From a virus, in the IMG/VR virus record IMGVR_UViG_3300045988_142756: a stretch of DNA of 64,000 nt; one strand, 5' to 3'. The notes below the pieces were generated by a model. The model searched no databases. It was not told the DNA's origin and saw only the letters and a program-made list of their open reading frames with translations. The translations under genes were made by a program, and so were the position numbers. Positions 40,219 to 55,725 of this stretch are shown here, one piece after another. Numbering within the stretch: the first letter of the stretch is position 1; each line of letters starts with the position of its first letter.

Positions 40219-40422
40219 ATGAAATTAGCAGACAGACAAGCAAAATTAGACGCCCACAAATGGGAAATGAGCCAAAAAGCAGGACACGATACTTGCGGAG
40301 AATATGATTTCTGTGCATATTGTAAAGGTGAAGAAGAATTCCCTTGTGCAAGGGCGTATGACAGATTTGACAGAGAATTAAGGTCGACTTCTGCGTACAG
40401 AAAAGACAAGAAAAAGAAATGA
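40219..40422 (+). CDS. small Cys-containing protein
   Basis: The ATG at 40219 follows a CAGGAG RBS. Encodes MKLADRQAKLDAHKWEMSQKAGHDTCGEYDFCAYC... Confidence 0.5.
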   Translation: MKLADRQAKLDAHKWEMSQKAGHDTCGEYDFCAYCKGEEEFPCARAYDRFDRELRSTSAYRKDKKKK

Positions 40423-40853
40423 AATTTACTATAATACATAATAATAAAGAATATCTTATCGACGCTAATAGTTTTAGTGAAGCAAGAAAAAAATTATTAG
40501 ATATGTCGTTTACACAATCCGACGCCATAGACAAATGTAATTCTTTGGGTAGACAGTTTATAAACCATTTTGATAAGATATATAAAAATCCTAAAAGTCA
40601 ATCTGTAAATCACTGGATAACAGAAATGACAAATGGGTGGAAGGAAGTTAAACAGATTAGATTAAAAGCAGATAATAAACCTATATCTAATTCTAAACTT
40701 CACGACTGGTTTTTTACCGTTGGTTCATACCCAGAGGACGTCATAACTCGGCCTATAAACGGTGAGTTAGAGTGCTATGATATATTTATATTCAAGGTAT
40801 TAAACGGCTGTGCTATAAAGGAATCTTTACGCGAAAGCGGCGTTAAAATTTAA
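40419..40853 (+). CDS. member 1 of the N-terminal-module family (module + helical domain)
   Basis: N-terminus MKFTIIHNNKEYLIDANSFSEARKKLLDM fits the family consensus (see findings). Confidence 0.55.
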   Translation: MKFTIIHNNKEYLIDANSFSEARKKLLDMSFTQSDAIDKCNSLGRQFINHFDKIYKNPKSQSVNHWITEMTNGWKEVKQIRLKADNKPISNSKLHDWFFTVGSYPEDVITRPINGELECYDIFIFKVLNGCAIKESLRESGVKI

Positions 40854-40898
40854 TTTATAATAATCTTTATATAATAATTTTGTAAAAAAGGAAATACT

Positions 40899-41180
40899 AT
40901 GATATCATATACAAGCAGAGTAGAAACATATACTAACTTCGGCGAGGATATAAAAAGAAATTGTGAACATCTTATAAAACTCGCTGAACAAGTAGATTCA
41001 GTACTAAATACATATTCAACTGATGTACAAGATATAGACGCACAAAATCAAGCACACCAGATGTATTTAGCATTAAATCACGAAGTAAAAGAACTCGCAA
41101 CTATATTAAATAGTATAAATGATGAAAATGGTCGACTTGATAGACTTTCAAATACATTACGACAAAGGGAAGGGCAATGA
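40899..41180 (+). CDS. hypothetical helical protein
   Basis: AAAGGAA RBS. Confidence 0.5.
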   Translation: MISYTSRVETYTNFGEDIKRNCEHLIKLAEQVDSVLNTYSTDVQDIDAQNQAHQMYLALNHEVKELATILNSINDENGRLDRLSNTLRQREGQ

Positions 41181-42355
41181 AAACTTATAAGATAACCAGA
41201 GGTAATAAACAATATGTAATAAAAGCAAAAGATACTTATTCTGCTGTTGCTAAATTACAGACTTTTTTGAAAGACAGTGAACCTATAGAAGATGATAGGT
41301 TATCTCCTATGACTTACAAAAAGTTAAAGGAAATGGGTTACAATTCAGACAAATGGAGAAATCTCACACAGGAAGAAGCAAACAAAATAGTTGCTAAATC
41401 TGAGACAAGTGCTAAACCCAAAACTGAAACGCCTAAGCAAGAAACTAAACAACCAAAAAATAATTCAGGTGCTGTTAAAAGTGAACTCGGTAACACTATA
41501 AGTTCCGATTTAGTTAAAAAATATCCTAATCTACATAAAGACTTAGGTAAGTTAGCGTCAGCGAATAGCAGAGTTCGTGAATTATCTAATTCAAATAATG
41601 GAAAAGATAAAGAAAAAGCATACGCATTGAGTGATAAGATTGCGGCTTATTTAGATAAGCATTATCCGGATACATTAGGGGATGATTTAGGTGCGGATTC
41701 ACTTTTAGATACTATTGGTGACGAAGATAGGTTTGAAGAAGCATTTTTGGATATCCTTGAAAATGGTAAACCAGAAGAAGCACCGGAAGAAACCGAATCT
41801 GTTAAATCAGAAGAAGGTCCAAGCAAGGAACTTCAAGAACTTATTGCTAATAAACCTAATACTTTAGAATCTGCAACTGAACAAGGTAATAAGTTATGGG
41901 AGCAGATAAATAAAGATATTGCAAAACGTGGTTCAAACATTGTTAAAGCAAACGATGGCAGTGATTATACATTTGATATAACTGACGGCTCAAGTTATTC
42001 AAAAGCGTATAAAGCGGCATTGGCTGGTGCACCTGTATCAGTAAATGGGTATGAAGCAAAAATTGAAAATCTTTCACCCGATGGGTATTTAAGAGCGTGC
42101 GCAACACAAAAAGAACAATCAGTTAAACAAATGATGGAAGACCGCATAGATGAAAATTATTATAAATTAGTTAAAGAATTAGGTAAATCTAAAACTATAA
42201 ATAATTCTATATGGTTAGACCGGAATGCAAATCAACAAGAAGGTATTCATAGAGCAATGGCTCTTAAAAAATTAGGTGTAGAAACTATTCCTACCTTAGT
42301 GGTATCAAATAAACAAGTACCAGAAGAACAAAAAGATAAATATTTATCATTTTAA
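41177..42355 (+). CDS. member 2 of the N-terminal-module family, with C-terminal ParB/Srx-like domain
   Basis: N-terminus MKTYKITRGNKQYVIKAKDTYSAVAKLQTFLKD. C-terminus QQEGIHRAMALKKLGVETIPTLVV resembles the ParB N-domain DGxHRxxAxxxxGxxxIP. Confidence 0.55.
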   Translation: MKTYKITRGNKQYVIKAKDTYSAVAKLQTFLKDSEPIEDDRLSPMTYKKLKEMGYNSDKWRNLTQEEANKIVAKSETSAKPKTETPKQETKQPKNNSGAVKSELGNTISSDLVKKYPNLHKDLGKLASANSRVRELSNSNNGKDKEKAYALSDKIAAYLDKHYPDTLGDDLGADSLLDTIGDEDRFEEAFLDILENGKPEEAPEETESVKSEEGPSKELQELIANKPNTLESATEQGNKLWEQINKDIAKRGSNIVKANDGSDYTFDITDGSSYSKAYKAALAGAPVSVNGYEAKIENLSPDGYLRACATQKEQSVKQMMEDRIDENYYKLVKELGKSKTINNSIWLDRNANQQEGIHRAMALKKLGVETIPTLVVSNKQVPEEQKDKYLSF

Positions 42356-42396
42356 TAAATAAAAACATTTATCAAATACAAAATAAAATATATATT

Positions 42397-42450
42397 GATT
42401 CCTTTGATTCTATACAATATATTTGTATAACTAATCAAAGGAATTTTTTT
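42397..42450 (+). terminator. long hairpin plus T7 immediately upstream of, and including, the terminase RBS
   Basis: ATTCCTTTGATT (42398-42409) pairs with AATCAAAGGAAT (42433-42444). Inner TATACAA/TTGTATA pair. T7 at 42444-42450, then ATG at 42451. Confidence 0.55.
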
Positions 42451-44493
42451 ATGCCAACGACAATAAATTTAAGAGAAGCCAAAATGTGGCAAATGAAAAA
42501 GTCGTTATATGCTTTCTTACGTGAAATGTGGGACGCATATGAAACGGCTCAGTATAGTGATATTTGGCTTATGGAATATCTATGTGAGTGCTTCCAGTAT
42601 TCTGTGAAGCATTTTTTGCCGAATTATGTTTGGCGAGATTGGATAACAGACGACGAATATAACTATATAAAAGAAAAATCTCACGGGGAGTGTCCTGTTA
42701 GAGATAAACTTATAAATGGCGAACACGTTCATAACCACGATTGGAATATGCCACCTCGTCATTCAAAAAGTTCTATATTAAATATTTGTGGACCTGTTTG
42801 GTTAGGACTTAACTCACCTATATCCGTTGCAAGTGTATCTCATACAGAACGCTTGTCAACAGAAATGAATACTAAACGCCAAAAATTATTGGAGAGTGAT
42901 AAATTTAAGTATTATTTCACAGACAGTGCATATAGACTTAAAAATTCAACTGCTTCAATGATTAGACTTAACAGTGGGTCAACATTTTATTCGGTATGTC
43001 AATCATCTTTCACAGGTTTTGGTGCTGATGTTATTATAGCGGATGACTTAACTTCTGCCGATAATGCAAGAAAAGACGGACAAGTATTAAGAAATAGTAT
43101 AGACTTTTTTAGAAAAACACTTCCAACCCGACTTAACACAAAGAAAACAGGCGTAATATGGCATATAGAACAGAGAATTGCACGAGGCGATGTAAGTGGT
43201 TACATACAAGAGGATAAAGATTTATCGCGAGTATATAGTCATACAGAAATACAAGCAATAGCAACTGACGATAGAGTTTTAATATATCCGTGTAGTGGAA
43301 AAGTTAAAATAATTAAAAAAGGTGAAAAATTATGGCCTGAAAGATTTGGCGACTATTCTACTGCTAAAATGGAAATGGGTGCAGATGAATTTAATACTCA
43401 ATACCAACAGGACGCAGGAGCGAGTGCAAGTAACATTGTTAAAGAACAATATATACATTATATAAGTGAAGAAGAATTTAGACGTGATTATAAACCTATG
43501 GCAGAATTCCATTATGGTTCACACGACTGCCCGGTAAAGGATAAAGAAATAAACGACTACCACGGGTTCGCAGAAGGATATGGTAGAGGTAATGAATTAG
43601 TAATATGCGAAGCGTGGCAAGAACATTTAGGGTATATAAAAGAAAAAGAACTATTAGTAAGTCTTGAAAATATAGACCCAGCAATAATACAGATAGTTGA
43701 AGATAAAGCAAACGGAGGTGCATTATTACAAGATTTATCTTCTCAACTTGCAGGCTTAGCACCTTTTAATCCCGGAACAGACAGCAAATCTCAACGGTTG
43801 TCAATAGCAGCAACATATATGCAAAATGGAGCGGTAAGATTTGTTAAATCCGATAAAACCTCAGAAGCAATAAGTAGTTTATTAAAATTTCCATTTTTAG
43901 TTCACGACGACGTTGTAGATGCTATAAGTCAAATGATTATATATCACTTTACAAGTAGACGAATGGGTATATACACAAATAGTTTTACCTATCAAAATAT
44001 AATACCAGATAGTGTTAGAGATAATTCACAATATTTGGAATATGGTGCAACTATTAACGGGGATACGATAAAGGTACTTGGTATAAATAGAATGTTTGAT
44101 AGAGACGAATATGTTGTCGAAAAAGAATATATATTTATAGGTATAAATAAATTTGAACAGTGGGCAAAAGAATTAAGAGGAAATTTATTATTAGATTGTA
44201 GTTATGAAAATAGATTATTTAACTTAGTTGATAAAAATTCTGTATTTATGACCAAATTTAATGACACAGATACGGACAAATCTTTCCAACTTGTTAAATC
44301 TGGTTTTTATAATAACAAAATTAAAATATGTAACAGTTGCTCACAGACAAAAAACGACATTGCTAAATTAAGAATAACCGAATCATCACGCCGTAAAGGC
44401 ACAGATGTACAAGAAACATTAGACGAAGGAATGGCGGGTTGCGTAAGAGGTTTAGTAACATATTTCAAAGGAATCGGTGGGCAGTGGTACTAA
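42451..44493 (+). CDS. terL: terminase large subunit
   Basis: 680 aa. Walker-A-like PPRHSKSSIL, Walker B ADVIIADDLTS, and a nuclease-type C-terminal half with HDDVVDA. Confidence 0.75.
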   Translation: MPTTINLREAKMWQMKKSLYAFLREMWDAYETAQYSDIWLMEYLCECFQYSVKHFLPNYVWRDWITDDEYNYIKEKSHGECPVRDKLINGEHVHNHDWNMPPRHSKSSILNICGPVWLGLNSPISVASVSHTERLSTEMNTKRQKLLESDKFKYYFTDSAYRLKNSTASMIRLNSGSTFYSVCQSSFTGFGADVIIADDLTSADNARKDGQVLRNSIDFFRKTLPTRLNTKKTGVIWHIEQRIARGDVSGYIQEDKDLSRVYSHTEIQAIATDDRVLIYPCSGKVKIIKKGEKLWPERFGDYSTAKMEMGADEFNTQYQQDAGASASNIVKEQYIHYISEEEFRRDYKPMAEFHYGSHDCPVKDKEINDYHGFAEGYGRGNELVICEAWQEHLGYIKEKELLVSLENIDPAIIQIVEDKANGGALLQDLSSQLAGLAPFNPGTDSKSQRLSIAATYMQNGAVRFVKSDKTSEAISSLLKFPFLVHDDVVDAISQMIIYHFTSRRMGIYTNSFTYQNIIPDSVRDNSQYLEYGATINGDTIKVLGINRMFDRDEYVVEKEYIFIGINKFEQWAKELRGNLLLDCSYENRLFNLVDKNSVFMTKFNDTDTDKSFQLVKSGFYNNKIKICNSCSQTKNDIAKLRITESSRRKGTDVQETLDEGMAGCVRGLVTYFKGIGGQWY

Positions 44494-44554
44494 AAATATA
44501 AATTATAACAAAATTTAATAAAATAGTTATGTAATTAAAAATAAGAGGTATATA

Positions 44555-45046
44555 ATGAGCAAATATATTATTAGAAATGGAATACCCATTAGGCTTGAGG
44601 ACAGTATTAACTTTGAAGCCTTAGATTATATAAGGCAAGAGAAAAAGTTATCTGATACTAAACAAGTTAAAGATACAAGTAAGGTAAAAGATGAATTATC
44701 CGAGAAAGATTCTAAAGAACTTGGTATTCGAGATATGATTGCTTTTACTCAGCAAAGAATTAGAAGTTTAATAAATGATGAGTATGAAGCAATAGACGGT
44801 TATACTTCCGCTATCACCGAATTTATGCGAAATTATAAAGAAACTAATGATGAATTATATAATCAATTAGCAATGGTATTAGCGGATATAAAGAAAGAAG
44901 AATTTCCTCACGTCGGTGAATTAAATAAATGTTTAAGTTTAATTGATGAAGAGGAAGGTAGATTATTTAATAAAGGCGTCAGAGAAGCGAAAAAGACAGT
45001 AGAAAAATCAATGGCGCCACAAGAACAAGAACAAGTGGAGGAATAA
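44555..45046 (+). CDS. hypothetical protein with half-ferritin-like E...ExxH motif
   Basis: LINDEYEAIDGYTSAI ... LADIKKEEFPHVGEL. Confidence 0.45.
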   Translation: MSKYIIRNGIPIRLEDSINFEALDYIRQEKKLSDTKQVKDTSKVKDELSEKDSKELGIRDMIAFTQQRIRSLINDEYEAIDGYTSAITEFMRNYKETNDELYNQLAMVLADIKKEEFPHVGELNKCLSLIDEEEGRLFNKGVREAKKTVEKSMAPQEQEQVEE

Positions 45047-45052
45047 TATAGA

Positions 45053-45517
45053 ATGAAAGTATTTTCGTTATCGTCAGTAAGAGGTACATTATATAATGAA
45101 TATTATGGCCTTACAAGTTTTGGCGGTCAATCTTATATAAATTTAGGTGGCGGTCAAAAACAAATTGAAAAGATTAGTTATTCATATAATACTGATATAT
45201 TTAGTATGAGTTCTACTGCTGATGGCGGTGTAGTTGTTGCTCATAGTAATGATAGATCTGGTACTATTTCAATACAATTACAACAAACATCACCGCATAT
45301 TAAAGTACTTACAGAATTTGCAAAATGGTGCTGGGCAAATCCAGACAAAGCAGAAAGTACATTAACAGTTACAGATGATACAGGTAACTTAGCATTTACT
45401 GCTACACAAGTATTTATTAAAGGAATACCTGAAAATTCTGTAGGTTCAACAGCAACTGAGCGTACCTATACATTTATGGCAGGTAATATAGAATCTCAGG
45501 AATCTAATATCGGCTGA
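45053..45517 (+). CDS. putative tail tube protein (DUF3277-like)
   Basis: Size 154 aa. Pattern recalled from memory of the DUF3277 family. Paired with a DUF3383-like gene. Confidence 0.4.
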   Translation: MKVFSLSSVRGTLYNEYYGLTSFGGQSYINLGGGQKQIEKISYSYNTDIFSMSSTADGGVVVAHSNDRSGTISIQLQQTSPHIKVLTEFAKWCWANPDKAESTLTVTDDTGNLAFTATQVFIKGIPENSVGSTATERTYTFMAGNIESQESNIG

Positions 45518-45532
45518 TAGGAGGAACAAAGA

Positions 45533-46711
45533 ATGGTAGATATCAATAAACTTATAGATGTTAATTTTAATATTGTAAGAGAAACAACTCCTATTGGCAG
45601 TTATAAGAAAGCGTTATATTTTATGAATAAAACCACTAATACTGCTTTTAATGGATATTGTACTTATTTGTTAAACAGTGAGAATGGTTTAACTCGTCAA
45701 AAAACAGATGGTAAAGATAATGCACCATTGACAGTAGATATATTTAATAAGATAAACGCTACTCTTAGTGATGCATTAAAAGAAACTAATGTAATTGCAA
45801 ATCTGAGCAGATTCTTTAATTACGACGGACAAGAGTTAATTGTTGTGGTATGTGATAATAAGGTACCTACTGCAGATGATGTGCAAGCAATTAAAAGAAC
45901 TTTCCAAGATTTCATTTATTACACAGTATCACAAGATATTTTTAACTCATTAACTGCTACAAATATAGACGAACTTAACAACGATATTTCTGCCCCATAT
46001 ACTGTAAGATTATGCTTAACAGTTAAAAATACTACAGAAAACGAAACAAAATTAACAAATGTTAAAAATAATAACATATTTGTTAAATTAGTGGATACCA
46101 CAGTCGAAACAGATGATGCGTTATCTTTCTTGGCGTTTACAACACAGATAAGGCTTGACGGATTTAATACTATCGAAGATTATTGCTACACAGACGAAAA
46201 TGGGTTAACAGTTTTAGATAGTAAAGGTCATTATGATACGTGGGTTACTAAATATAATTTCGTTGACAAAGTTGGCAATAAGGTACTTAACTTCGGCGGA
46301 AATTTATATAATGGAACATCTATTGACAGCGACTTTGGTGTAACTTGTATAGAAAACGATATTGCGTATGCTTTATTAGATATAGTAACAAGTAAAATTC
46401 GTATTACTCCAACGGCACAAACAAGGGTTGTTACGGCAATAAACACTGTTCTTAACAGATATATTAACAATGGTTTAATACTGTCTAATTCCGTTTATAG
46501 CGGGGAAGATATGTTTATTAAATACAATGAAAAAACATATTCTATAATCCATAAAGGAACAACTTTATTAAATGGTTATTATGTATTTACAGTTCCTGTA
46601 AGTGCAATATCTGTAGAGGATAAACAAAATAAAAAATTCACACCGATTATCGTAGTCATTATGACTTCGGCAGGAGCAAGAACAATAAGCGTATCTGGTT
46701 ACGCATATTAA
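45533..46711 (+). CDS. putative tail sheath-like protein (DUF3383-like)
   Basis: 392 aa. The N-terminus INKLIDVNFNIVRETTPIGSYKKALYF resembles the DUF3383 opening, recalled from memory. Confidence 0.4.
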   Translation: MVDINKLIDVNFNIVRETTPIGSYKKALYFMNKTTNTAFNGYCTYLLNSENGLTRQKTDGKDNAPLTVDIFNKINATLSDALKETNVIANLSRFFNYDGQELIVVVCDNKVPTADDVQAIKRTFQDFIYYTVSQDIFNSLTATNIDELNNDISAPYTVRLCLTVKNTTENETKLTNVKNNNIFVKLVDTTVETDDALSFLAFTTQIRLDGFNTIEDYCYTDENGLTVLDSKGHYDTWVTKYNFVDKVGNKVLNFGGNLYNGTSIDSDFGVTCIENDIAYALLDIVTSKIRITPTAQTRVVTAINTVLNRYINNGLILSNSVYSGEDMFIKYNEKTYSIIHKGTTLLNGYYVFTVPVSAISVEDKQNKKFTPIIVVIMTSAGARTISVSGYAY

Positions 46712-46719
46712 GAAGATAA

Positions 46720-48372
46720 ATGGACAGGCTCAAAAAGAACACTTTAATAGACAATATTGAAATATCCATCAGTGACGCTGCACCTAAGATGCCAACTGAT
46801 ATAAGTAAAGCATCAGTAGAGCAACGCATTAAAATGGCTACAAAGTTAATGGACGACGCATTAGGTATGTCCGTTAGTAATGGTGTGAGCGTTAAAGATG
46901 GGTCTTTCAATAATAGTCGACTTAAATTAGGTATAAGTGATATAAACCTTAACAGTGGCGAATACTTCACTGATATGATTACATTCGACAGAATGACAAT
47001 CATAGAATTATATCACGGAAACTGGATATTTAGAAGAATAATTGACAGGGTTGCACAAGATATGTGGTCACACGGTATTGCTATAAAATGTGATACAGAC
47101 CCAGTCGAATTAGAAAATGTTTACAAAAGATTAAATAGATTAAACAGTCAACTTATTTATGGACGAGAGCAGGCAAGGTTATTTGGTGGTGCTGCCTCTC
47201 TTATTATGGTTGACGATGGTGAAGAAGATTTATCAAAACCATTAAATATAAATAATATAAAACCACATTCCCCTATAAGATTATATACAACGGATAGATG
47301 GTACGGGTTAGAAACAAGTACTGAATTAGTAACTAACTTCAAGAGCGTTGATTTTAATACACCTAAATATTATACCTTCTATTTAGATAACGGCGATTCT
47401 AAACGGTCTACACAGTTCACAAGAGTACATCATAGCAGAGTACTTCGTCATACAAATAGACGAACTGTAAGAATGATGGAAGATAGGCTTATGGGCTGGG
47501 GGTTAAGTGAGTTAGAACATATTTATCAAACACTTCTTGCTCATACCACAATGAATATGTCTTCCGTATCACTTGTCGGCAAATCATTACTTGAAATTGT
47601 TAAGGTTTCGGGTATGAGAGGTATGATGAGTGGACTCAGTATGGGTAACAGTGGAGCACAAGCACAATTAGGTGCCCAGTTGTCTGCAATAAATAATTAT
47701 AGAAACATAAATGATTTAGTTTTAATTGATAAAGATGACGAATATGACAGAAAAGAACTTCAATTAAATGGATTAAATGATTTATTACAAAACGAACAAG
47801 AACTTATTGCAGGTGCTGCTGAAATGCCACAGGTTCTAATTTACGGACAAACTAAAAATGGTTTAGGCGATAATGCAACTGAAATGGTATTCTACGCACA
47901 AACAATTCTTGGAAAACAAGAAGCAGAGTTAAGGGTAGAATTAGATAAATTATTACCTATAATATTTAAGGTAGAAGGATTAGAAGTACCTTCAAATTTA
48001 GACTATGATTTTAATAGTATAAATGATATGGAACCTGATGCAAAAGTAAATCTTATAAATAGTGTAGCAGGTGCTATAAATACTCTTACCGAAGCAGGGT
48101 TAATGACAAAAGAAACCGGATTAGCAGAATTAAAACAATATTCGGCTATAACTGGATTTGGTGCTAACTTAGCAGAAAGAGATTTAGAGTTAGCCAAACA
48201 AATGGACCAGCAGTCGGGTGAAGAAGAAGATGAACTGAGCGGAATGAATTTAGGTAGTAATGAACCACAAGTTGGTGAAGAACAACCTGAAGATAATTTA
48301 ACCGATGACTATGCAGAAGTAAAAGAAAAGGTACTTAAAAATAAATTCTTTGATAGGAAAAAGCGTAAATGA
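46720..48372 (+). CDS. portal protein (DUF1073-like)
   Basis: 550 aa. LYHGNWIFRRIIDRVAQDMWSHGI pattern. Acidic C-terminus. Lies in the packaging gene neighbourhood. Confidence 0.65.
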   Translation: MDRLKKNTLIDNIEISISDAAPKMPTDISKASVEQRIKMATKLMDDALGMSVSNGVSVKDGSFNNSRLKLGISDINLNSGEYFTDMITFDRMTIIELYHGNWIFRRIIDRVAQDMWSHGIAIKCDTDPVELENVYKRLNRLNSQLIYGREQARLFGGAASLIMVDDGEEDLSKPLNINNIKPHSPIRLYTTDRWYGLETSTELVTNFKSVDFNTPKYYTFYLDNGDSKRSTQFTRVHHSRVLRHTNRRTVRMMEDRLMGWGLSELEHIYQTLLAHTTMNMSSVSLVGKSLLEIVKVSGMRGMMSGLSMGNSGAQAQLGAQLSAINNYRNINDLVLIDKDDEYDRKELQLNGLNDLLQNEQELIAGAAEMPQVLIYGQTKNGLGDNATEMVFYAQTILGKQEAELRVELDKLLPIIFKVEGLEVPSNLDYDFNSINDMEPDAKVNLINSVAGAINTLTEAGLMTKETGLAELKQYSAITGFGANLAERDLELAKQMDQQSGEEEDELSGMNLGSNEPQVGEEQPEDNLTDDYAEVKEKVLKNKFFDRKKRK

Positions 48373-48800
48373 TAAAACAATATAGAGTTAAAATAAATGA
48401 TAGAAATTTTATTGTTAAGGCTGAGAATCAACGACAAGCAGTACTTAAAGTTAAGGCAGTAATAAGAGATATAGGCTCTATTATAAAAGGTGTGTCGTTT
48501 TCATACAAAGAAAATATACCTTCTGCACTAAACTTAAATAAAATATATGACGATACTGTATATCGTTTAGGTAATAATACATATCTATATATTAGAATAT
48601 TAACTACACAAAATCTAATGTTCCACGAAGATATGTGGAATTATATAGAACGGTTATATAAGGGTTCAGAATCTGAAAGATACGCTATAACGGCATATAA
48701 AGACCATAATAATAACGTAATATTTGAATCAAGTAATAATAGCCCGTTTGATGCTAAGTTAGAACAGCTATGTAGGAAATATTATAGAAATAATGATTAA
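48369..48800 (+). CDS. member 3 of the N-terminal-module family
   Basis: N-terminus MIKQYRVKINDRNFIVKAENQRQAVLKVKAVIRD. Confidence 0.55.
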   Translation: MIKQYRVKINDRNFIVKAENQRQAVLKVKAVIRDIGSIIKGVSFSYKENIPSALNLNKIYDDTVYRLGNNTYLYIRILTTQNLMFHEDMWNYIERLYKGSESERYAITAYKDHNNNVIFESSNNSPFDAKLEQLCRKYYRNND

Positions 48801-48829
48801 ATAGATTATAAATAAGGAGAATCTTATAT

Positions 48830-49423
48830 ATGAAGTTAATGAAAACAACACGAAGCGAAGGTGAATTCTTAACTCGTTTTAGCACCGAATATAAAATGAC
48901 TAAATCAAAAACACCTCAATTCGTTACAATATTAGTACCAGATGAACAAGCACAACTTATGCAAAGAATAGGCATAAATGATTTTATAGCAGGTGATTCT
49001 GTAGAAGATGTTATGACATCTGTAAAAGTTTATAAGTTAGACCCTGCTAATGTGCCACAAGATGCAAATAAAGTAGATTGTGCTAAAAACCAAACTGTTG
49101 TAACTGTTTCTAATGGTCAAGATGAAAATCAATTTAAGATTTATGCACCGTTAGATAAGATGGTTAAGTTTAATAGTACTAACCCTAATCAAGGTGAACA
49201 TTATTGGATAGGTATTGCAGTGCAAACAGGAGAGGCATCAATAACAAGCCTTAAATGGAATGGAACACAATTAACATCTTTAGATGTTGCAGACGCTAAT
49301 TCAGTTAAATTACCTACTGGTAGTATTATTTTATGGTTACCTGGTGAAACAACCGGCACAGCGTCAGCAGTCGTTTCTAAAGGGGATAAATCAACCGTAT
49401 TGGTATTTGAATTCATACATTAA
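48830..49423 (+). CDS. hypothetical structural protein (beta-rich)
   Basis: AAGGAG RBS. Lies in the head gene neighbourhood. Confidence 0.55.
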   Translation: MKLMKTTRSEGEFLTRFSTEYKMTKSKTPQFVTILVPDEQAQLMQRIGINDFIAGDSVEDVMTSVKVYKLDPANVPQDANKVDCAKNQTVVTVSNGQDENQFKIYAPLDKMVKFNSTNPNQGEHYWIGIAVQTGEASITSLKWNGTQLTSLDVADANSVKLPTGSIILWLPGETTGTASAVVSKGDKSTVLVFEFIH

Positions 49424-49435
49424 GAGGAACAATAT

Positions 49436-51436
49436 ATGAGAGAATTTAGAATTAAAGTAAATGATGAAAAAACCTATGTAGTTAAAGCAAATGATTATAA
49501 TCAAGCCGTTAAAACTTTACATAGTAAATTAAGAGATTTTGATTTAACAAACTTCCTTGCATTAAAACGTTCTCTTGAATTAAGAATAGGTGAAGAGATA
49601 GATTTTGATAAATTAGAAGAATACGTTAATAAATTACCAAAAGATAAAAACGGCAAGAAAAATGTAGATGTTAAAGAAGTTATTAAGTGCTGTATAAAAG
49701 CAAAGGATAACGCAGTAAGTGATTCCATTAGTAAGTATAATGGTGAAGACGCAATAAGAACTAATGGTTTTGTAAAAATAAAAGAAGATGGTGATTGGAC
49801 TTCCTATAAATATAATGGAAGTGATTTTGATGGTGCTGTTTTCAAAATTCATCAATACAATCCGAGTTTAATTGCTTTCGTCAGTAATGGTAATAGAACT
49901 ATAACTGTAAGAAATAAATATCTTAATGACGCTGATAATACTGCACAAGGTGAAATAGAAGTTTTGAAGTCTTTTGGATTTGATTATAAAGACGGAAAAT
50001 GGGTAAAAGAATCTAATAATAACACTATTGTTGCCCAACCTGATTATCATTATGTTTCCGTAATAGGACCTGGTGATACGGAGAAACATTGTAAAAAATA
50101 TCAATATCAATCTGCAGGAATGCTTAAAAAAATAATAGCATCAAATATTAAAGATTCTTCTATAACTGATACGGATATGAAAACTGCCGAAGATATCATA
50201 AAGAAATATGGTGGTAATCCTGTTGGCAACGTTATGGGCTTACAAAAAACTCGTTTTGTAGGTCAAGATGAAATTAAAAATCAACACGATTTTGCCACTG
50301 ACTTAGATAAAGCAGGGTATAAATTCTATTTAATAAATGGTAGATATCGTATATCACCTAAAGATTCTTCTATAAAAGATGTATCTTATGTAAGTGGTAA
50401 AAACTTAAAAATAGGACAGAAAATAGTAGAAGATGGTGAAGTATTAGAAGTTGTGGATATAAAAGAAACTCAAAGGGGAGTAAATAATAATTATAGAGAT
50501 GTAACTTTTAAGAATGTTAAAACAGGTGCTACTGAAACCGTTCATTTTGGAAATAGTACATTGGCAAGATTAAATGATTATTCTATAAAAGATAGTGATA
50601 GTTATCAAGTATGGACTATAAATGAAAAAGGTGTATATCATAAAGAAGCAGATGTACCAAATCCGCAATTAGCAAAAGCGATTGCGTCTCAATTAAAGAA
50701 ACAAGGTAGATGGGTTCAGATATCTAAAAATTCAAGAACAAATATAGTTAGTGACTGTGATATGATGGATTCTTTAAGTATAAAAGTTAAGCTTAATGGC
50801 AAAACATATAACGGTATATTTAATGGTATATCTAATACAGATAAAACTTTCGGTGATGTATATATTCCTGAACTTGTTTCACTTCATAGCGGTGATAAAG
50901 GCGTATTTAATCCGGATGAAGGAAATTACGTTTCGGACGGTAAATTTTATTTCAAGATGGAAAATCTTAAGAAATGGAATCCTTTTCTAAATAATTATTT
51001 AACTGATTCTAATATAACTGATGCTGACCCTGTAAAAGTAGAAAAGATTATTAGAAAAGAAAAAAGTGCATTAGGTGTTACATATTATATTTTCCAAACA
51101 AAATCAAGTAGTGGTTATACAATATATTATCAAGTAACTGATAAAACTTATCACGGCGAACCTACTTACTCGGGCGGTGGTATAGTATCGTTCTCATTAA
51201 AATCAGCGAATGATACTTTAGACCATAACTTATTATCAGACAAACTCAAAGCAAAATATGGTGAGAAAGAAGGAACAAAGAGATATTTACGCGGTGAGAA
51301 TGATAGTGCTATAAAAGATTCTAATAATATTAAAAATCGTAAATCTTATACAATAAAGGTAGGAGACAAACAGTATAAAGTATTTGCGGAATCTGAAAGT
51401 GAAGCAATAAATAAATACATTAAAAGTAAGAAATAA
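49436..51436 (+). CDS. member 4 of the family: 666-aa protein with the module at both termini and about 7 D-S-x-I-(K/T)-D-type motifs
   Basis: N-terminus MREFRIKVNDEKTYVVKANDYNQAVKTLHSKLRD. C-terminus RKSYTIKVGDKQYKVFAESESEAINKYIKSKK. Motifs include KDSSITD, KDSSIKD, DYSIKD and NDSAIKD. Confidence 0.6.
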   Translation: MREFRIKVNDEKTYVVKANDYNQAVKTLHSKLRDFDLTNFLALKRSLELRIGEEIDFDKLEEYVNKLPKDKNGKKNVDVKEVIKCCIKAKDNAVSDSISKYNGEDAIRTNGFVKIKEDGDWTSYKYNGSDFDGAVFKIHQYNPSLIAFVSNGNRTITVRNKYLNDADNTAQGEIEVLKSFGFDYKDGKWVKESNNNTIVAQPDYHYVSVIGPGDTEKHCKKYQYQSAGMLKKIIASNIKDSSITDTDMKTAEDIIKKYGGNPVGNVMGLQKTRFVGQDEIKNQHDFATDLDKAGYKFYLINGRYRISPKDSSIKDVSYVSGKNLKIGQKIVEDGEVLEVVDIKETQRGVNNNYRDVTFKNVKTGATETVHFGNSTLARLNDYSIKDSDSYQVWTINEKGVYHKEADVPNPQLAKAIASQLKKQGRWVQISKNSRTNIVSDCDMMDSLSIKVKLNGKTYNGIFNGISNTDKTFGDVYIPELVSLHSGDKGVFNPDEGNYVSDGKFYFKMENLKKWNPFLNNYLTDSNITDADPVKVEKIIRKEKSALGVTYYIFQTKSSSGYTIYYQVTDKTYHGEPTYSGGGIVSFSLKSANDTLDHNLLSDKLKAKYGEKEGTKRYLRGENDSAIKDSNNIKNRKSYTIKVGDKQYKVFAESESEAINKYIKSKK

Positions 51437-52017
51437 TGATGACAATAGAAGACTTAAAAATTAACATTGATAATTGTGTTAAATACATTAAAGATAAGTA
51501 CGGAGAGCAGGAAGATTTAAGTCCTGCTCAATGGCTTACCTTAATCGCCGAAGAATTTGGTGAATTTGCACAAGAAATAAACGATAATAATTTAGGTAAC
51601 AATTTTATAGAAGAAGGTTGTCAAGTATGTGCAACTACTTTATGTGCTATGGAGCAAATATTTAATAATTCAACTAAGGTGAATGTTATGGATAAGAAAT
51701 TTGTAATTAAGAAAAATGACAAGAAATATGTAGTTTATGCTACAGATGCTGAAACAGCAAAACAAAAATTAGAAGTTAAGATAAACCCAGATAGAGTTGT
51801 TGAAGTAGCAGATGCTTATAATATTTCTTTAGATAGGTATGATAGTCAATTATCAAGATTAAATAACGCTATACAACTGTTAGAAGGCGTAGATGGATAT
51901 AGTAAAATATATAACAGCGTCCAGGGGTTATGGGGTGTATTGAAAAAAGAAATACAATCCGATAATAGACTTTCTGATGATGAGAAACAAGGTTTATTTA
52001 GAAAGTATAATTTATAA
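51436..52017 (+). CDS. MazG-like all-alpha NTP pyrophosphohydrolase domain fused to the family module (member 5)
   Basis: N-terminal half LTLIAEEFGEFAQEI...FIEEGCQV (ExxE...EE pattern). The module MDKKFVIKKNDKKYVVYATDAETAKQKLEVKI starts at an internal ATG (51688) preceded by TAAGGTG. Confidence 0.5.
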   Translation: MMTIEDLKINIDNCVKYIKDKYGEQEDLSPAQWLTLIAEEFGEFAQEINDNNLGNNFIEEGCQVCATTLCAMEQIFNNSTKVNVMDKKFVIKKNDKKYVVYATDAETAKQKLEVKINPDRVVEVADAYNISLDRYDSQLSRLNNAIQLLEGVDGYSKIYNSVQGLWGVLKKEIQSDNRLSDDEKQGLFRKYNL

Positions 52018-52022
52018 GATAA

Positions 52023-52946
52023 ATGAAAAAGAAACTTACACCGAGTTTTCTTTTACGCAAACGAAAACGCTTAAAACCTAATCAGACCGCTGCGGTTAAA
52101 TTTTTCAATTACTTAAAGAAAGAATTAACTAAGCAACTGAACCTTAAAAAAGATTCTACCATAGAAGACGCATTAGATAAACTTCTAAAGGTAGATTTCA
52201 CAGGGATTAAAAAACATATTAACAGATTAGGTTTAGACGTTCTAAAAAAGAATAGAGAAGGCTTTGCAAATATTCTTGAGTCTTTAACAATAGGCTTAGC
52301 ACAACAAAATATACAAAAACAAAAACAACGAGAAGAAGAATTATTCAAACAAGCATTACCAAGCCTAATTAAAGAAACTAAGATATATCAACCTTTTTTG
52401 GATAAGTTTAATGAGAATATGTCGCTCATAAAAAACTTACCAGCAGATGTTGAAAGAGAACTTAAAAAAGCATACCTTAAAGGCGAAGGATTCCGTGGAC
52501 AGGATATAGAAGACTATATTACTGAGAAAATGGGTAAACGAGCAAAACTCATTATCAGAACGGAAAGTGCTAAATTAAATTCTGCATTAACAGAAGTACG
52601 AGCAAAGAGTTTAGATATTAACTGTTATATGTGGAGTACAAGTCAAGATGCAAGGGTAAGACCAAGTCATAAGTTAATGAATAATGTATTAGTATTCTTT
52701 AATGATACTCCTATTCTTGACGGAATGAAGGGTAATGCAGGTGAAACACCTAACTGTCGCTGTATTGAATTACCAGTATTTGGAATAGATGATATATCGT
52801 TTCCAGTAAAGGTAGCAGAAAGGTTAGTAGTAGATAGTAAATATAATAAATCTACTAAAAAGTCAAACGCAATAATAAAAAGCGGTAGAATCGCTATTTA
52901 TAATAAAAAAGAATTTATAGAAAAATACGGAAATAATTTCAATTGA
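52023..52946 (+). CDS. head morphogenesis protein, SPP1 gp7 / Mu F family
   Basis: SQDARVRPSHKLMNNVLVFFND...GETPNCRCIELP is the family signature. Confidence 0.75.
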   Translation: MKKKLTPSFLLRKRKRLKPNQTAAVKFFNYLKKELTKQLNLKKDSTIEDALDKLLKVDFTGIKKHINRLGLDVLKKNREGFANILESLTIGLAQQNIQKQKQREEELFKQALPSLIKETKIYQPFLDKFNENMSLIKNLPADVERELKKAYLKGEGFRGQDIEDYITEKMGKRAKLIIRTESAKLNSALTEVRAKSLDINCYMWSTSQDARVRPSHKLMNNVLVFFNDTPILDGMKGNAGETPNCRCIELPVFGIDDISFPVKVAERLVVDSKYNKSTKKSNAIIKSGRIAIYNKKEFIEKYGNNFN

Positions 52947-52956
52947 GAGGTATTAA

Positions 52957-54357
52957 ATGAAAAAATTCAAAATTACACAAGGCGATAGGGTTTATATAGT
53001 TGATGCAAAAAGTCATATAGACGCTATTAGCAAAGTTAAGGCAGTTAAAACGGATGAGATGAGAGATTCTATATCTCAATGGAATCCAGGTATGAGTGAA
53101 ATAGGTTTATTTCAAATTTCATACAAGCGCAACGGGGTATATCAATCAATACTTGTCAGAGCCAACTCTGAAGAACAGGCAAAGCAGAAGTTATTAAACA
53201 ATCTAAACGGAGTAGATATTATAGGAGTTAATTCCCACCCTTCTCCTCACTTCCACGAACCTATTTTAGATTCTAAGATAAAAGATGATGGTTATTATTA
53301 TTTACTCAGAGATGCTATTGATTTATTAACTAAACCGGGTGCAGCAAGAAGTTGGTCACAGCCTTATTTAGAGGAAGTACAAGAATATATGGTTCAAAAA
53401 GGCATAAACCCTACAAATGTAAATCAGTGGAAGAAAAAATATGAAAGCCTTACTAAGGATTCCTCAATAAAAGATATAAATCAAGTATTATTATCTAATC
53501 TTAAACAAGTAGCACAAAAAGGTGATGCTTGGTGGAATAAATGGAAGAAATTATTAGATATGAGTGATAAATGGAATTCTTATCAATGGAAGGAACTTAG
53601 AAATAATGACCCTAAAAAATATAAACTTATTATTAATAATAAACAGTATGCGGAAAAAGAAGCTGAGGCACTAAATAGAGAATGGGATAGAGCAATAGAT
53701 GCTTTAAGCAGAGACAGATCGTTTGGTCGTCCTGGTGATTATAGAATGGATTTACACAGTTACAAATCTCGTAATGATAATTATCCTATGGGTAATAGTC
53801 GAAGATATGATGAGATTTTATATGGTTATGAACAAGCAGAAAAATCTGCCAGAGCAAAAAAGGGCTTAGATTCTTCTATAAAAGATGCGTGGTCTGGTAT
53901 TAGAAGTAATGGGGTTATATTTAACTATTCTAATGGAAAATATACAATAACGCATAAGAATGGCAAGGTAGAAACATTCCCTGATAATAAATTTAATACT
54001 GTCGAAGAATTATTTAAGTATATAGATAATATAAAAGACTCTGCTATTAAAGATGAAGATTATTCTAAATATTTGTCTATTGTAAAACAACTTGAGAAAC
54101 TTGTAGAACCTGCTAATAGAGCGTTACAACAGAAAATTGCAAAATACGGTGTAACTAAACAAGATATAAGAAATAATTCTCCAAAATATAGAGATGTATG
54201 TAGAGAAATACCAGAATTAAAAGTATGGGCAAAGTTAATTATGCAGTTACCTGGAGAATTAGCAGGATTTATGCCTGCACACCCGAGTCAAGAAAGTGTA
54301 GATAAACTTAAAAAAGCAATAACTAATAGTAAAGCATTTGACTCCACTATAAAATAA
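52957..54357 (+). CDS. member 6 of the family: 466-aa protein with two N-terminal modules and 6 D-S-x-I-K-D-type motifs
   Basis: MKKFKITQGDRVYIVDAKSHIDAISKVKAVKTD and FQISYKRNGVYQSILVRANSEEQAKQKLLNNL. Motifs include LDSKIKD, KDSSIKD, LDSSIKD, KDSAIKD and a terminal FDSTIK. Confidence 0.6.
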   Translation: MKKFKITQGDRVYIVDAKSHIDAISKVKAVKTDEMRDSISQWNPGMSEIGLFQISYKRNGVYQSILVRANSEEQAKQKLLNNLNGVDIIGVNSHPSPHFHEPILDSKIKDDGYYYLLRDAIDLLTKPGAARSWSQPYLEEVQEYMVQKGINPTNVNQWKKKYESLTKDSSIKDINQVLLSNLKQVAQKGDAWWNKWKKLLDMSDKWNSYQWKELRNNDPKKYKLIINNKQYAEKEAEALNREWDRAIDALSRDRSFGRPGDYRMDLHSYKSRNDNYPMGNSRRYDEILYGYEQAEKSARAKKGLDSSIKDAWSGIRSNGVIFNYSNGKYTITHKNGKVETFPDNKFNTVEELFKYIDNIKDSAIKDEDYSKYLSIVKQLEKLVEPANRALQQKIAKYGVTKQDIRNNSPKYRDVCREIPELKVWAKLIMQLPGELAGFMPAHPSQESVDKLKKAITNSKAFDSTIK

Positions 54358-54543: not shown

Positions 54544-55725
54544 ATGAGAATTATTGATAACAGATTAACATTTGGGCATAAGATAACTCCTCGTATTTGG
54601 GAAGATAATTCGGGTTATCTTATTTGCTATGACTGCATACTTGCAAGAACAGGTAGTTATGACTATTTGGAAAGTGAGATAATGCAAGACGGTGACCCAA
54701 ATAAAATTGTAAAAGTATATAGAACTCCTGAAGAAGTATTTAGTCCTGAGGCTATTGCTTCTTTTGAGAATAAACCATTTTGTAACGAACACCCACAAGA
54801 CGATGTAACGCCGGAGAATTATAAGGACTTAATGGTAGGTACCATTAGGAATATTAGAAGGGGTACAGGTAATTTAGAAAACTGTTTAGTTGGCGATGTA
54901 ATAGTTTTTGACCCCGAAGTACAAGAGTTAATTAAAAGCGGTGAAAAAAGAGAATTGTCGTTAGGTTATAATACAGATATAATACAAGACCAGTCAGGTC
55001 GATATGTGATGACTAATATAAGAGGAAATCACTTAGCACTTGTTGACAGTGGTAGGGCAGGGTGTGCTACTATTAGAGATAGTGCAAAATCATTAAATAA
55101 ATTAGGAGGACAAAACGGAATGAAGAATATCCGTAATGGCAAAAAATTCAAGTATAAGATGCTTGATGAGGACGTTTACGAAGTAGTAGATGCAGAGCCT
55201 GAAGAAGAACTTGATGTCATAGAAGATGATGATATTTCGACTGAAGAAGCACCTGCACCTGTTACAGAAGAGCCTGTCCACGATGACGACGACGATAAAA
55301 TGAGTCAAGTTTTGGATATGCTCACTAAAATTTGTGAACATTTAGGTATTGGTGCTGATGAAGCAGAACCCGTTGTTGACGAAGATGTACCTGAGGAAGT
55401 TGAAGAAGAAATCGTAACTGACGAAGATGTTCCTATGGAAGAAGATACGCCGGTAGAAGATGAAGATGATACTTTTGAAGTTGAAGAAATTGAAGACGAC
55501 GACGAAGAATTAGAACTTAGTGAAGAAAACAAAGCAATGGACGCAGATGCTTGCTTACCTAAGATGGACGAAGGTATGAAAAAAGATGCTGCTCCTAAAA
55601 AGAAGAGTGGTTCGGTGAAAGCATATTCTAAATTTGCAGCAGTTAAAGATTCGGCTCCTGTTGTAACAGCAGAAGATGTACAAAAATCGTTCCAAGACCG
55701 TTATGATAGAGCGGCTAAGAATTAA
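54544..55725 (+). CDS. DUF2213-like prohead protease/scaffold protein with long acidic region
   Basis: N-terminal ILARTGSYDYLESE...VKVYRTPEEVFSPEAIASFENKPFCNEHP...RELSLGYN matches the DUF2213 pattern, recalled from memory. Acidic D/E-rich segment at 55190-55530. Confidence 0.6.
   Translation: MRIIDNRLTFGHKITPRIWEDNSGYLICYDCILARTGSYDYLESEIMQDGDPNKIVKVYRTPEEVFSPEAIASFENKPFCNEHPQDDVTPENYKDLMVGTIRNIRRGTGNLENCLVGDVIVFDPEVQELIKSGEKRELSLGYNTDIIQDQSGRYVMTNIRGNHLALVDSGRAGCATIRDSAKSLNKLGGQNGMKNIRNGKKFKYKMLDEDVYEVVDAEPEEELDVIEDDDISTEEAPAPVTEEPVHDDDDDKMSQVLDMLTKICEHLGIGADEAEPVVDEDVPEEVEEEIVTDEDVPMEEDTPVEDEDDTFEVEEIEDDDEELELSEENKAMDADACLPKMDEGMKKDAAPKKKSGSVKAYSKFAAVKDSAPVVTAEDVQKSFQDRYDRAAKN

Follow-up and report, generated by a model that had tools for sequence, protein, structure and literature searches.

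A recurrent 30-residue module in the head-gene block of an uncultured gut phage, a candidate capsid-docking tag on cassette-built proteins

A module of ∼27–30 amino acids occurs eight times in six open reading frames (ORFs) between 40.4 and 54.4 kb on the plus strand of the 64 kb stretch of phage DNA analysed here ('the window'), and nowhere else in it. We give roughly even odds (probability about 0.5) to the explanation that this module is a shared capsid-docking tag, carried by hypervariable proteins that would be processed by the head protease and delivered by the virion; packaging, the binding partner, cleavage and ejection are steps that we infer. This explanation is favoured by the strict terminal placement of the module across 85 protein clusters, by its confinement to the head-gene block in all relatives, by a naturally occurring protein that joins it to a scaffold domain of the capsid interior, and by the constancy of the tag beside hypervariable cassettes. 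An earlier note on this DNA had already suggested a shared docking module for virion-packaged cargo, which after testing is the best-supported reading, packaging itself remaining conjectural. The junction motif and cassette architecture described below, which that note did not contain, carry most of the argument. The source phage is uncultured and comes from the human gut.

All eight segments listed in the earlier note lie on the plus strand where it had placed them (Table 1). Its seven ORFs reduce to six, the seventh being a possible internal start at 51688 within ORF 51436-52017, with a Shine-Dalgarno-like AAGGTG 6 nt upstream. The alignment offered as gapless needs a three-residue insertion in the second copy of ORF 52957 (52957b), and the proposed consensus, taken literally, matches only three of the eight copies; a relaxed core, [FYH].[VI].A.[DNSTE]...A..[KT], matches seven, against 0.1 expected in shuffles. 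An HMM built from the eight copies scores them at 31–44 bits, the next-best six-frame match in the window reaching 6 bits, but a model that scores its own training copies is a circular test, and leave-one-out HMMs were therefore run. These recovered seven of the eight copies at 14–21 bits (E 1e-5 to 3e-3), with the best non-family match at 5–8 bits; 52957b was still the top non-training match (10.8 bits, E 0.023), through its second strand and helix only.

Table 1. Module copies, junction motifs and head genes in the window.
Feature	Coordinates	Strand	Details
Module copy 1	40419..40499	+	N-terminus of ORF 40419-40853 (144 aa); leave-one-out 15.9 bits, E 8e-4
Module copy 2	41177..41269	+	N-terminus of ORF 41177-42355 (392 aa); leave-one-out 19.5 bits
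Module copy 3	48372..48461	+	N-terminus of ORF 48369-48800 (143 aa), directly 3' of portal gene; 16.4 bits
Module copy 4	49436..49531	+	N-terminus of ORF 49436-51436 (666 aa cassette string); 21.5 bits
Module copy 5	51338..51427	+	Extreme C-terminus of ORF 49436-51436; 16.8 bits
Module copy 6	51688..51783	+	Internal, aa 85-116 of ORF 51436-52017 (193 aa); 14.3 bits
Module copy 7	52957..53046	+	N-terminus of ORF 52957-54357 (466 aa cassette string); 20.8 bits
Module copy 8	53110..53196	+	aa 52-80 of ORF 52957-54357; divergent 'type b', longer hairpin
Five junction motifs, ORF 49436	50153..51319	+	DSSITD 50153, DSSIKD 50363, DYSIKD 50576, DSNITD 51005, DSAIKD 51302; bounding cassettes of 70-143 aa
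Five junction motifs, ORF 52957	53269..54357	+	DSKIKD 53269, DSSIKD 53458, DSSIKD 53869, DSAIKD 54037, DSTIK 54340
Large terminase	42451..44493	+	
Portal protein (Phage_portal_3)	46720..48372	+	
MuF-like minor head protein	52023..52946	+	Between module-bearing genes
DUF2213 (Pa193 gp24-type) protease/scaffold protein	54544..55725	+	
[KR]DS sites of DUF2213 protein	55075, 55645	+	IRDSA 55075, VKDSA 55645; both positionally conserved
Major capsid protein (MCP)	56248..57384	+	SLRDS at aa 10-14, RDS at 56281-56289

AlphaFold2 predicts that the module forms a beta-hairpin followed by a helix (strands at residues 2–8 and 11–17, helix at 20–34; pLDDT ∼87–91), as had been proposed from the sequence alone. 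The model of ORF 41177 likewise begins with a beta-beta-alpha unit, followed by a low-confidence linker, and copy 8 is modelled with strands at 51–58 and 61–68 and a helix at 72–82. No named match to the module emerged from Pfam, PHROGs, PDB or BFVD, and the ∼30-residue module is a previously undescribed domain. The resemblance to YegP (DUF1508) or DUF2188 that had been suggested received no support: no member of the module alignment matched either family in Pfam at E ≤ 10, in scans whose HMMER filters drop most matches above ∼0.1.

An exhaustive search of 1.84e9 proteins returned 124 instances of the module in 85 protein clusters. It starts within residue 6 in 84 of these instances and ends at most 12 residues from the C-terminus in 14, and most of the 'internal' copies follow a [KR]DS at a distance of 15 aa or less. 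A few stand-alone module ORFs of 33–43 aa exist, part of which may be truncations. The module is kept in every relative found (portal 39–55% identical), each of 11 distinct relatives having one to seven copies per locus, all inside the block of genes encoding TerL, tube, sheath, portal, MuF and protease; in the window the order of TerL, portal, MuF, protease/scaffold and MCP genes is as the earlier note described it. The search found no cultured relative, the closest GenBank portal being ∼30% identical.

The module is strongly basic, with a mean net charge of +4.3 over 27 residues and a positive value in 98% of 93 distinct modules, which suits DNA binding no less than docking. It could be a small basic nucleic-acid-binding domain that holds the cassettes on the packaged genome, or one that acts after entry on nucleic acid of host or phage, so that cargo would travel with the DNA, with no docking to scaffold or capsid, and the proteins might still be internal to the virion. 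T4 internal proteins are likewise basic and DNA-associated, weak Foldseek matches of the module include AbrB-type VapB DNA-binding antitoxins, and the cassettes beside the module in ORF 41177 look ParB-like (E ∼0.4). The ParB/Srx-like domain assigned to this ORF in the earlier note gained no support from Pfam (no match at E ≤ 0.1) or from phmmer against PDB sequences; a profile search with its C-terminus gave a weak match to SbnI, of the ParB/Srx fold (E 0.39), over the QEGIHRAMALKKLGV.TIP motif. Against nucleic-acid binding, Foldseek and database searches detected no significant similarity of the module to any DNA-binding fold, a 27-residue hairpin plus helix presents no obvious DNA-reading surface, and the strict terminal placement and adjacent junction would be left unexplained; by the time DNA enters the head the scaffold is already gone, so that binding to DNA could not account for entry into procapsids. 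We consider this explanation unlikely.

Several proteins carry two or three copies of the module (ORF 49436, ORF 52957, P0053, P0025), genomes encode six or more carriers, and a beta-beta-alpha unit of 27 residues would probably not be stable by itself, all of which would suit a homo- or hetero-oligomerisation unit whose hairpins pair into a common sheet. Its role would then be complex assembly rather than addressing, the carriers being joined in one internal body or core, or gathered in the infected cell. The copies in the AlphaFold2 model of ORF 52957 are not reported to pack together and their linker is disordered, but this model is of low confidence overall (pTM 0.35) and thus weighs only weakly against oligomerisation, which is in any case compatible with docking rather than exclusive of it. 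As an explanation of the module, oligomerisation seems to us quite unlikely.

A second motif, D-S-x-I-K-D or, in looser form, [KR]-D-S, separates discrete cassettes in the large carriers, with five or six cassettes each in ORFs 49436 and 52957 and up to ∼10 in other family members. Copy 7 is followed by MRDSISQW (RDS at 53062-53070), copy 2 by LKDSEPIED (KDS at 41270-41278) and the 'DDRLSPMTYKKLKEMGY' cassette, and copy 5 begins six residues (SNNIKN) past a DSAIKD. Head proteins, 5,472 aa in total, contain 13 [KR]DS and the 14,264 aa of other proteins contain 2 (∼17-fold enrichment; Fisher p 3e-6), and [KRNTEQ]D[SA] follows 24 of 48 non-redundant modules, against backgrounds of 16% and 2%. The AlphaFold2 model of ORF 52957 places each of its five junction motifs in coil or in a linker of low pLDDT, often immediately N-terminal to a helix.

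In 209 proteins, 575 junctions delimit 120 cassette families, almost all of them without a Pfam match. Individual cassettes recur at variable ordinal positions, with the module-bearing segment nearly always first. Strains that are ∼95–100% identical differ by the presence or absence of cassettes, the breaks falling at the junction motif, and one protein alone falls into 180 distinct clusters at 90% identity. The tagged cargoes of the clade include a ferritin-like two-helix domain (P0071). The MazG-like (all-alpha NTP-PPase) domain that had been read into the N-terminus of ORF 51436 found no match in Pfam or among PDB sequences; this region matches two PHROGs of unknown function (∼2e-4). In one relative (L004), the domain order is permuted with respect to ORF 51436-52017.

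The coincidence of homology breakpoints with junctions could also mean that module and junctions are mainly products of recombination-driven diversification, with conserved 5' gene ends and junctions supplying homology for cassette exchange, the carriers being early or accessory proteins absent from the virion, and the motif a linker or helix-capping element rather than a protease site. The position of the motif before helices would suit this, as would its codons, which vary less than the background does: Ile is encoded by ATA in 9 of 10 cases (p 0.009). In addition, the last junction of ORF 52957 contains the stop codon, DSTIK directly preceding it, where a cleavage site would be pointless, so conservation of the motif is at least partly recombination history. 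However, paralogues of the module in a single genome share only ∼30% amino-acid identity, which leaves no DNA homology for recombination, and their fold and key residues are conserved nonetheless; [KR]DS occupies conserved positions in the non-cassette scaffold/protease protein and at the MCP N-terminus; the genes are embedded, on the same strand, in the late structural block; and a fusion to the scaffold domain exists. We regard this account as improbable.

The central region of the DUF2213 protein is acidic (net charge −51); of its two conserved [KR]DS sites, one follows the protease domain and the other is ∼20 aa short of the C-terminus. The N-terminal [KR]DS of the MCP is present in two of three lineages (kept in L013, absent in L003), and the [KR]DS site of the MuF protein is not conserved in the lineage comparison. 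The label 'protease' stems from PHROG annotation; for Pa193 gp24, the prototype of DUF2213, a putative scaffold role was proposed by authors who could not tell whether it is cleaved, and it is a virion protein of which residues 286–326 were modelled bound to the capsid interior (PMC11456595). In a relative, protein P0083 joins a DUF2213 domain (4e-39) to a module-containing cassette string. This cis fusion and the co-occurrence of modules with junction motifs might suggest that the module is an exosite ligand by which the head protease recognises its substrates, or that it helps folding in a chaperone-like manner; it would then draw the protease to the cassette strings without determining what is encapsidated. 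But MCP and scaffold carry the motif without the module, ORFs 40419 and 51436 carry the module without any [KR]DS, and we hold this to be very improbable.

If the module is a docking tag, it would bind a capsid-interior partner during procapsid assembly, most plausibly the very acidic scaffold region of the DUF2213 protein, and the attached protein would co-assemble. The carriers would be 'beads on a string', independent cassettes of 56–200 aa joined by disordered linkers that contain D-S-x-I-K-D or [KR]-D-S; were this motif the recognition site of the head-maturation protease, the strings would be cut inside the head into small proteins, which would enter the host along with the DNA, as in polyvalent-protein and internal-protein systems. 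The short junction, partly conserved at the DNA level, may also serve as a recombination joint, whereby cassettes would be rapidly reshuffled between close relatives and the tag kept constant. Several observations count against docking and cleavage: only half of the modules directly precede the motif; modules can be C-terminal, and in one protein they cap both ends, as the signals of T4 and P1 do not; stand-alone module ORFs exist; ORFs 40419 and 41177 precede the terminase gene, outside the interval from portal to capsid genes; and the sites of MuF and of the L003 MCP are not conserved.

By analogy, docking is best read as a variation on the capsid-targeting logic of T4 and P1 combined with that of polyvalent proteins. 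The T4 capsid-targeting sequence (CTS) of IPI, IPII and IPIII is likewise a short N-terminal element common to several head-internal proteins with unrelated cargo attached, and it directly precedes a maturation-protease site, as the module here may do at its motif. T4 internal proteins begin MKTYQEF or MKTFKEF and modules here MKTYKIT or MKKFKIT, a superficial likeness confined to the first three or four residues (MKT[YF]); IPI, IPII and IPIII gave negative bit scores against the module HMMs. The CTS is ∼10 residues long, is not a folded beta-beta-alpha unit, and is associated with a different protease family and cleavage motif, whereas the module is also found at C-termini and in several copies per protein.

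In P1, the N-terminal 30 residues of DarB suffice to encapsidate a large multidomain anti-defence protein, Dar genes adjoin those for portal and protease, the packaged proteins include DdrB-type ParB proteins, and the authors found no common consensus among Dar proteins (PMC9024508). A ∼30-residue N-terminal element and a gene neighbourhood beside head genes are shared, but DarB, DarA, DdrA, DdrB, Hdf and Ulx gave negative or no scores with the module HMM, and the Dar system is without cassette and junction architecture.

Polyvalent proteins and MuF toxins are mosaic, encoded near virion genes, thought to be packaged and injected, and subject to rapid domain shuffling (PMC5512222, PMC5576092), with a conserved trafficking part, variable effector parts, and MuF and DdrB-ParB hubs (PMC5512222). 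Two or more distinct effector-type domains per polypeptide (ORFs 49436 and 52957) and association with virion and packaging genes are likewise found among the carriers. Polyvalent proteins, however, use MuF, portal or zincin-peptidase hubs together with Pfam LPD domains, and Pfam scans of the window carriers and 60 family members detected no MPTase zincin peptidase, ArdC-N, MuF, DdrB-ParB, SNF2, methylase or LPD domain; here MuF is encoded by a gene of its own, conservation resides in the new 30-aa module, and a single repeated junction motif separates the domains.

Paralogous head proteins of phiKZ and SPN3US lose propeptides at a short motif that occurs in several copies per protein, the SPN3US propeptides being N-terminal (PMC10052503). 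Their protease is self-cleaving and of the T4 gp21-like family, its motif differs from the junction here, the propeptides form no shared folded domain, and cassette shuffling is not reported there. Encapsulin cargo-loading peptides, too, are short terminal tags that direct unrelated cargo to an HK97-fold shell, and encapsulated ferritin parallels the tagged ferritin-like protein of this clade; this is analogy only, encapsulin tags being C-terminal, unstructured and of different consensus, with neither protease processing nor DNA.

To our knowledge, the selection of proteins for encapsidation in tailed phages is understood in only a few models (T4, P1, P22), and we know of no transferable, recognisable signal from them. 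It is possible, at somewhat less than even odds, that this clade runs a programmable cargo-loading system, in which a terminal docking domain and one protease and recombination junction allow a library of more than 100 interchangeable effector cassettes, spread over the phage population, to be packaged, cut and injected. If all the cargo of one phage shares a foldable 30-residue tag, the cargo set would be predictable from sequence, gut phages could be loaded with foreign proteins by means of the tag, and injected effectors could be discovered bioinformatically. The junction-delimited arrays expose a large pool of small uncharacterised domains, and the motif gives a testable prediction of substrate specificity for the widespread DUF2213 head protein family. 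Cassette turnover between near-identical phages is what arms-race selection on host-takeover or anti-defence effectors would be expected to leave, and the system would, if real, be a phage counterpart of polymorphic-toxin and encapsulin logic, its repertoire diversifying between near-identical phages of the human gut.

All eight segments that the earlier note had read as copies of a shared module are present in the window where it had placed them, and an HMM built from these copies scores them at 31-44 bits, vs. 6 bits for the next best match in a six-frame translation of all 64 kb. As scoring copies with a model built from those same copies is circular, the search was repeated with one copy withheld each time: seven of the eight were the best non-training match (14-21 bits, E-values of 1e-5 to 3e-3; best unrelated match, 5-8 bits). 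The second copy in ORF 52957 (ORFs are named by start coordinate) was likewise the best non-training match, through its second strand and helix only (10.8 bits, E = 0.023), and is genuinely divergent, with a longer hairpin (hereafter type b). Taken literally, the consensus first proposed for the module matches only three of the eight copies; a relaxed core consensus matches seven, against 0.1 expected in shuffled sequence. The original count of eight copies holds; they lie in six ORFs, the supposed seventh being a possible internal start at 51688, which has an SD-like AAGGTG 6 nt upstream and coincides with the beginning of the ORF in some relatives (P0018), so that a separate product is possible.

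The window is a stretch of a tailed-phage genome (low GC content, 31.8%) with every gene on the + strand. The module copies lie in or adjoining the packaging and head genes, a setting borne out by annotation of terminase, portal, MuF, DUF2213 and capsid genes, and a six-frame HMM scan found none in the remaining ∼47 kb. The tail tube and sheath-like genes (45053-46711) lie between the large terminase and portal genes, an unusual order kept in all relatives examined; a four-tRNA cluster (Leu-TAA, Pro-TGG, Met-CAT, Thr-TGT) is located at 35178-35818.

Annotated genes of the packaging and head region
Feature	Position	Strand
Large terminase	42451-44493	+
Tail tube homologue (PF11681)	45053	+
Sheath homologue (sheath-like gene)	45533	+
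Portal, Phage_portal_3	46720	+
MuF-like protein	52023	+
DUF2213 protease/scaffold	54544	+
Cement protein	55748	+
Major capsid protein	56248	+

There is no close cultured phage (best identities ∼29% for terminase and ∼30% for portal). Near-identical contigs, the longest about 99 kb, are known from human-gut metagenomes; IMG/VR, other metagenomes and one contig binned in a Bacilli MAG supplied more distant relatives (portal 39-55% identical). A low-GC gut bacterium of the class Bacilli is the likely host. The module is present in every relative, at 1-7 copies per 12-22 kb locus, always within the terminase-tube-sheath-portal-MuF-protease block. Conservation at the DNA level is ruled out as the cause of the module's recurrence, because the module paralogues are ∼30% identical at the protein level.

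AlphaFold2, run on the alignment of copies, predicts two strands (residues 2-8 and 11-17) and a helix (20-34), with a pLDDT of about 87-91 over the first 30 residues and a low-confidence linker thereafter, in agreement with the beta-hairpin plus helix guessed previously. Neither Pfam nor PHROG profiles matched the module, whether the carriers or the module alignment were scanned, and a literature search found no description of it. Foldseek searches against the PDB returned nothing significant (best E ∼1; the matches, all at E > 1, covered only generic hairpin-helix halves, those of VapB and of the B1 domain of protein G), and those against BFVD returned only uncharacterised phage proteins of 33-34 amino acids, a ‘DPS/ferritin-like’ protein and a 726-aa phage protein (E 0.1-2). 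No annotation in Pfam, PHROGs, the PDB or BFVD matches the module.

A word-indexed homology search with module alignments recovered only close relatives, an alignment of divergent modules used as query returned one protein, and three IMG/VR scans using divergent carriers found no match; the gene context of divergent carriers was taken from an exact-protein contig look-up. When 1.84 billion representative proteins were searched exhaustively with a profile, 85 clusters emerged at E ≤ 0.001, which, together with the returns of the first homology search, provide 124 module instances in 97 proteins, none with a Pfam domain over the module and none named by any source. The module begins within the first six residues in 84 of the 124 instances and finishes ≤12 residues from the C-terminus in 14; the other 26 are internal, six of them partial matches in two unrelated repeat proteins and the remainder mostly type b, which always lies ∼15 residues after [KR]DSISQW. 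Some stand-alone module ORFs exist. In related phages, variants of ORF 48369-48800 (143 aa) of only 52-64 aa (P0012, P0013, P0015, P0017) are without the central ∼95 residues, the module being joined straight to a C-terminal ‘KDHNNN...’ segment, and a near-identical strain (L007:4165-5260) has an extra ORF 41177 paralogue with its own diverged module (MKTFKITSKNKQYIVRAVDSYTALLKLK) followed by ‘DVRLSPMT’.

A second element, the junction motif, separates segments of the large carriers. ORF 49436 has five copies of the pattern D-S-[SAKN]-I-[KT]-D and ORF 52957 has four, plus a fifth that the stop codon truncates, and the other coding ORFs of the window have only one in all; LTKDSSIKDINQ is an example of a synthetic junction peptide sequence. 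The head block (5,472 aa) contains 13 instances of the looser form, [KR]-D-S, vs. two in the 14,264 aa outside it (Fisher p = 3e-6), one of those two being in a neck gene. The looser form directly follows the modules of ORFs 41177 and 52957. The MuF protein carries it too, as does the capsid protein (at residue 12), and the protease/scaffold has two sites, one immediately behind the DUF2213 domain (GCATIRDSA) and the other some 25 residues before the C-terminus. Divergent relatives keep both protease/scaffold sites in position; the capsid site survives in two of the three lineages, and the MuF site does not survive. In the non-redundant family, [KRNTEQ]D[SA] lies ≤18 residues after 24 of 48 modules, vs. 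16% of random windows in the same proteins and 2% in non-structural proteins of the window, and it precedes seven of ten non-N-terminal modules. Half of the modules are without an adjacent motif, and carriers 40419 and 51436 have no [KR]DS.

The junction motif delimits discrete cassettes. When ORFs 49436 and 52957 are compared with their counterparts in ∼99%-related phages, whole motif-bounded segments are present or absent between flanks that are 92-100% identical, and in one strain a different cassette is inserted between the two modules of the ORF 52957 homologue. When ORF 52957 is aligned with 36 variants, the high-identity stretches end internally at ten unique boundaries, six of them at the motif (p ∼0.009) and the other four at the module/MRDS border. 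Public data hold 180 distinct 90%-identity clusters for ORF 52957 alone (266-790 aa). Across 209 family proteins, 575 strict junctions bound cassettes of 120 families, with a median internal length of 119 aa and none below 56; a given cassette can stand anywhere from first to sixth in the string, and the segment with the module almost always leads it. AlphaFold2 modelling of the 466-aa ORF 52957 protein gave a modest mean pLDDT of 65, with all five motifs in coil or in linkers of pLDDT <50 between structured elements.

Codon usage would predict more variety among the junction codons than is seen (ATA for Ile in nine of ten; p = 0.009), which suggests recent duplication or recombination at the joints. 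ORF 52957 ends (54340-54357) with a stop codon inside a junction (DSTIK*), where a relative, P0055, has no stop and continues as DSTIKDSYGW... into another cassette. The stop-cut junction and the codon uniformity show that the conservation of the motif owes something to recombination history.

Very few cassettes are recognised by Pfam: ferritin-like, HEAT/LRV repeats, LysM and a weak KOW-like domain. The ferritin-like match above the gathering threshold (Ferritin, 30.5 bits) is that of P0071, one of the other clade members in which the two-helix domain of ORF 44555-45046 is fused to the module; such module-tagged, ferritin-like cargo recalls encapsulated ferritins. ORF 44555-45046 itself contains a half-ferritin or rubrerythrin-like two-helix region (E-x-x-A-I-x-x-Y ... 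E-E-x-x-H); it has no match in a Pfam scan, and is 43% identical to a relative's protein matching Rubrerythrin (2.7e-4). The KOW-like match, to an EF-P N-terminal domain (50399-50533, ORF 49436 residues 322-366; E = 7e-4, under the Pfam cutoff), recurs in three family members. Of two domain calls of the earlier note, MazG-like for ORF 51436 found no support (Pfam, PHROGs, PDB sequence search), and ParB/Srx-like for ORF 41177 was not confirmed (PDB sequence and profile searches), the profile search giving only a match to SbnI, of ParB/Srx fold, that spans the QEGIHRAMALKKLGV.TIP motif at a sub-threshold E of 0.39. A cassette of ORF 41177 (41291-41401, residues 39-75; ‘DDRLSPMTYKKLKEMGY...QEEANKIVA’) directly follows the module in the distant P0068, P0069, P0074, P0079 and P0082, and also lies inside a 980-aa protein of locus L004, after a DSAIED junction. 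The commonest cassette (53869-54036 in the window; 106 copies in the sample) is a 56-aa beta-beta-beta-alpha unit whose top Foldseek matches in the PDB are the RNA-polymerase-binding proteins YkzG (probability 0.99, E = 0.41) and T7 Gp2 (E = 3.6); sequence-level support for kinship with either is absent, and we treat this predicted resemblance as a lead only.

A link to the capsid interior is provided by P0083, a 951-aa protein whose N-terminal domain is DUF2213 (Pfam, 4e-39). Behind this domain come IRDS and a string of cassettes, in which the module is bracketed by SLRDSAENL and VKDSLKV. P0083 is a called gene (L014:10001-12856), found on one 54.8-kb phage contig only, 4.7 kb from the portal gene; the next gene encodes an inorganic pyrophosphatase. 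Pa193 gp24, prototype of the DUF2213 Pfam family, was detected in virions by LC-MS. In the published model, its residues 286-326 form a helix-turn-helix pentamer that binds the capsid vertices from within; the authors regard the protein as a putative scaffold and were unable to say whether it undergoes cleavage (PMC11456595). PHROGs labels the family head maturation protease, and a literature search on the specificity of DUF2213 proteases found no cleavage-site data. In the DUF2213 protein of the window, the 165 residues behind the domain (acidic segment, residues 181-345) carry a net charge of -51. The module is consistently basic: its net charge averages +4.3 and is above zero in 98% of the 93 distinct sequences, which makes this acidic scaffold region an obvious candidate for its electrostatic partner. 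The positive charge would also fit a module that binds DNA, and the several copies per protein would fit an oligomerisation unit.

The simplest model accounting for all observations is one of docking, cleavage and delivery. The module would be a docking tag common to its carriers, which are strings of small, independent domains, and would draw them into the procapsid as it assembles; the junction motif would be the site cut by the head protease in the capsid protein, the protease itself and the cargo strings; and the freed domains would be delivered along with the DNA.

The logic of this model matches that of several known systems. T4 internal proteins carry a common short N-terminal targeting sequence, which the prohead protease cuts off. 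In P1 DarB, the 30 N-terminal residues are enough for encapsidation (PMC9024508), giant-phage head proteins have N-terminal propeptides removed at a repeated motif (PMC10052503), and polyvalent proteins are mosaic and multidomain, and are packaged beside MuF and ParB hubs (PMC5512222). The module is judged not to be homologous to the targeting signals of T4 or P1, T4 IPI-III and the P1 Dar proteins scoring negatively with the module HMM, and Pfam scans of window carriers and family members found no polyvalent-protein hub domains; the module system belongs to none of these families. The underlying principles are already known; we know of no description of the combination seen here, in which a recognisable, folded tag at protein ends is common to every carrier, one junction motif is used throughout, and the cassettes form a library at the population level. 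We infer packaging, cleavage and ejection alike, and give the docking-tag mechanism in its specific form a probability of about 0.5; the broader reading, in which the carriers would be virion-internal, processed and hypervariable cargo, we consider somewhat more probable.
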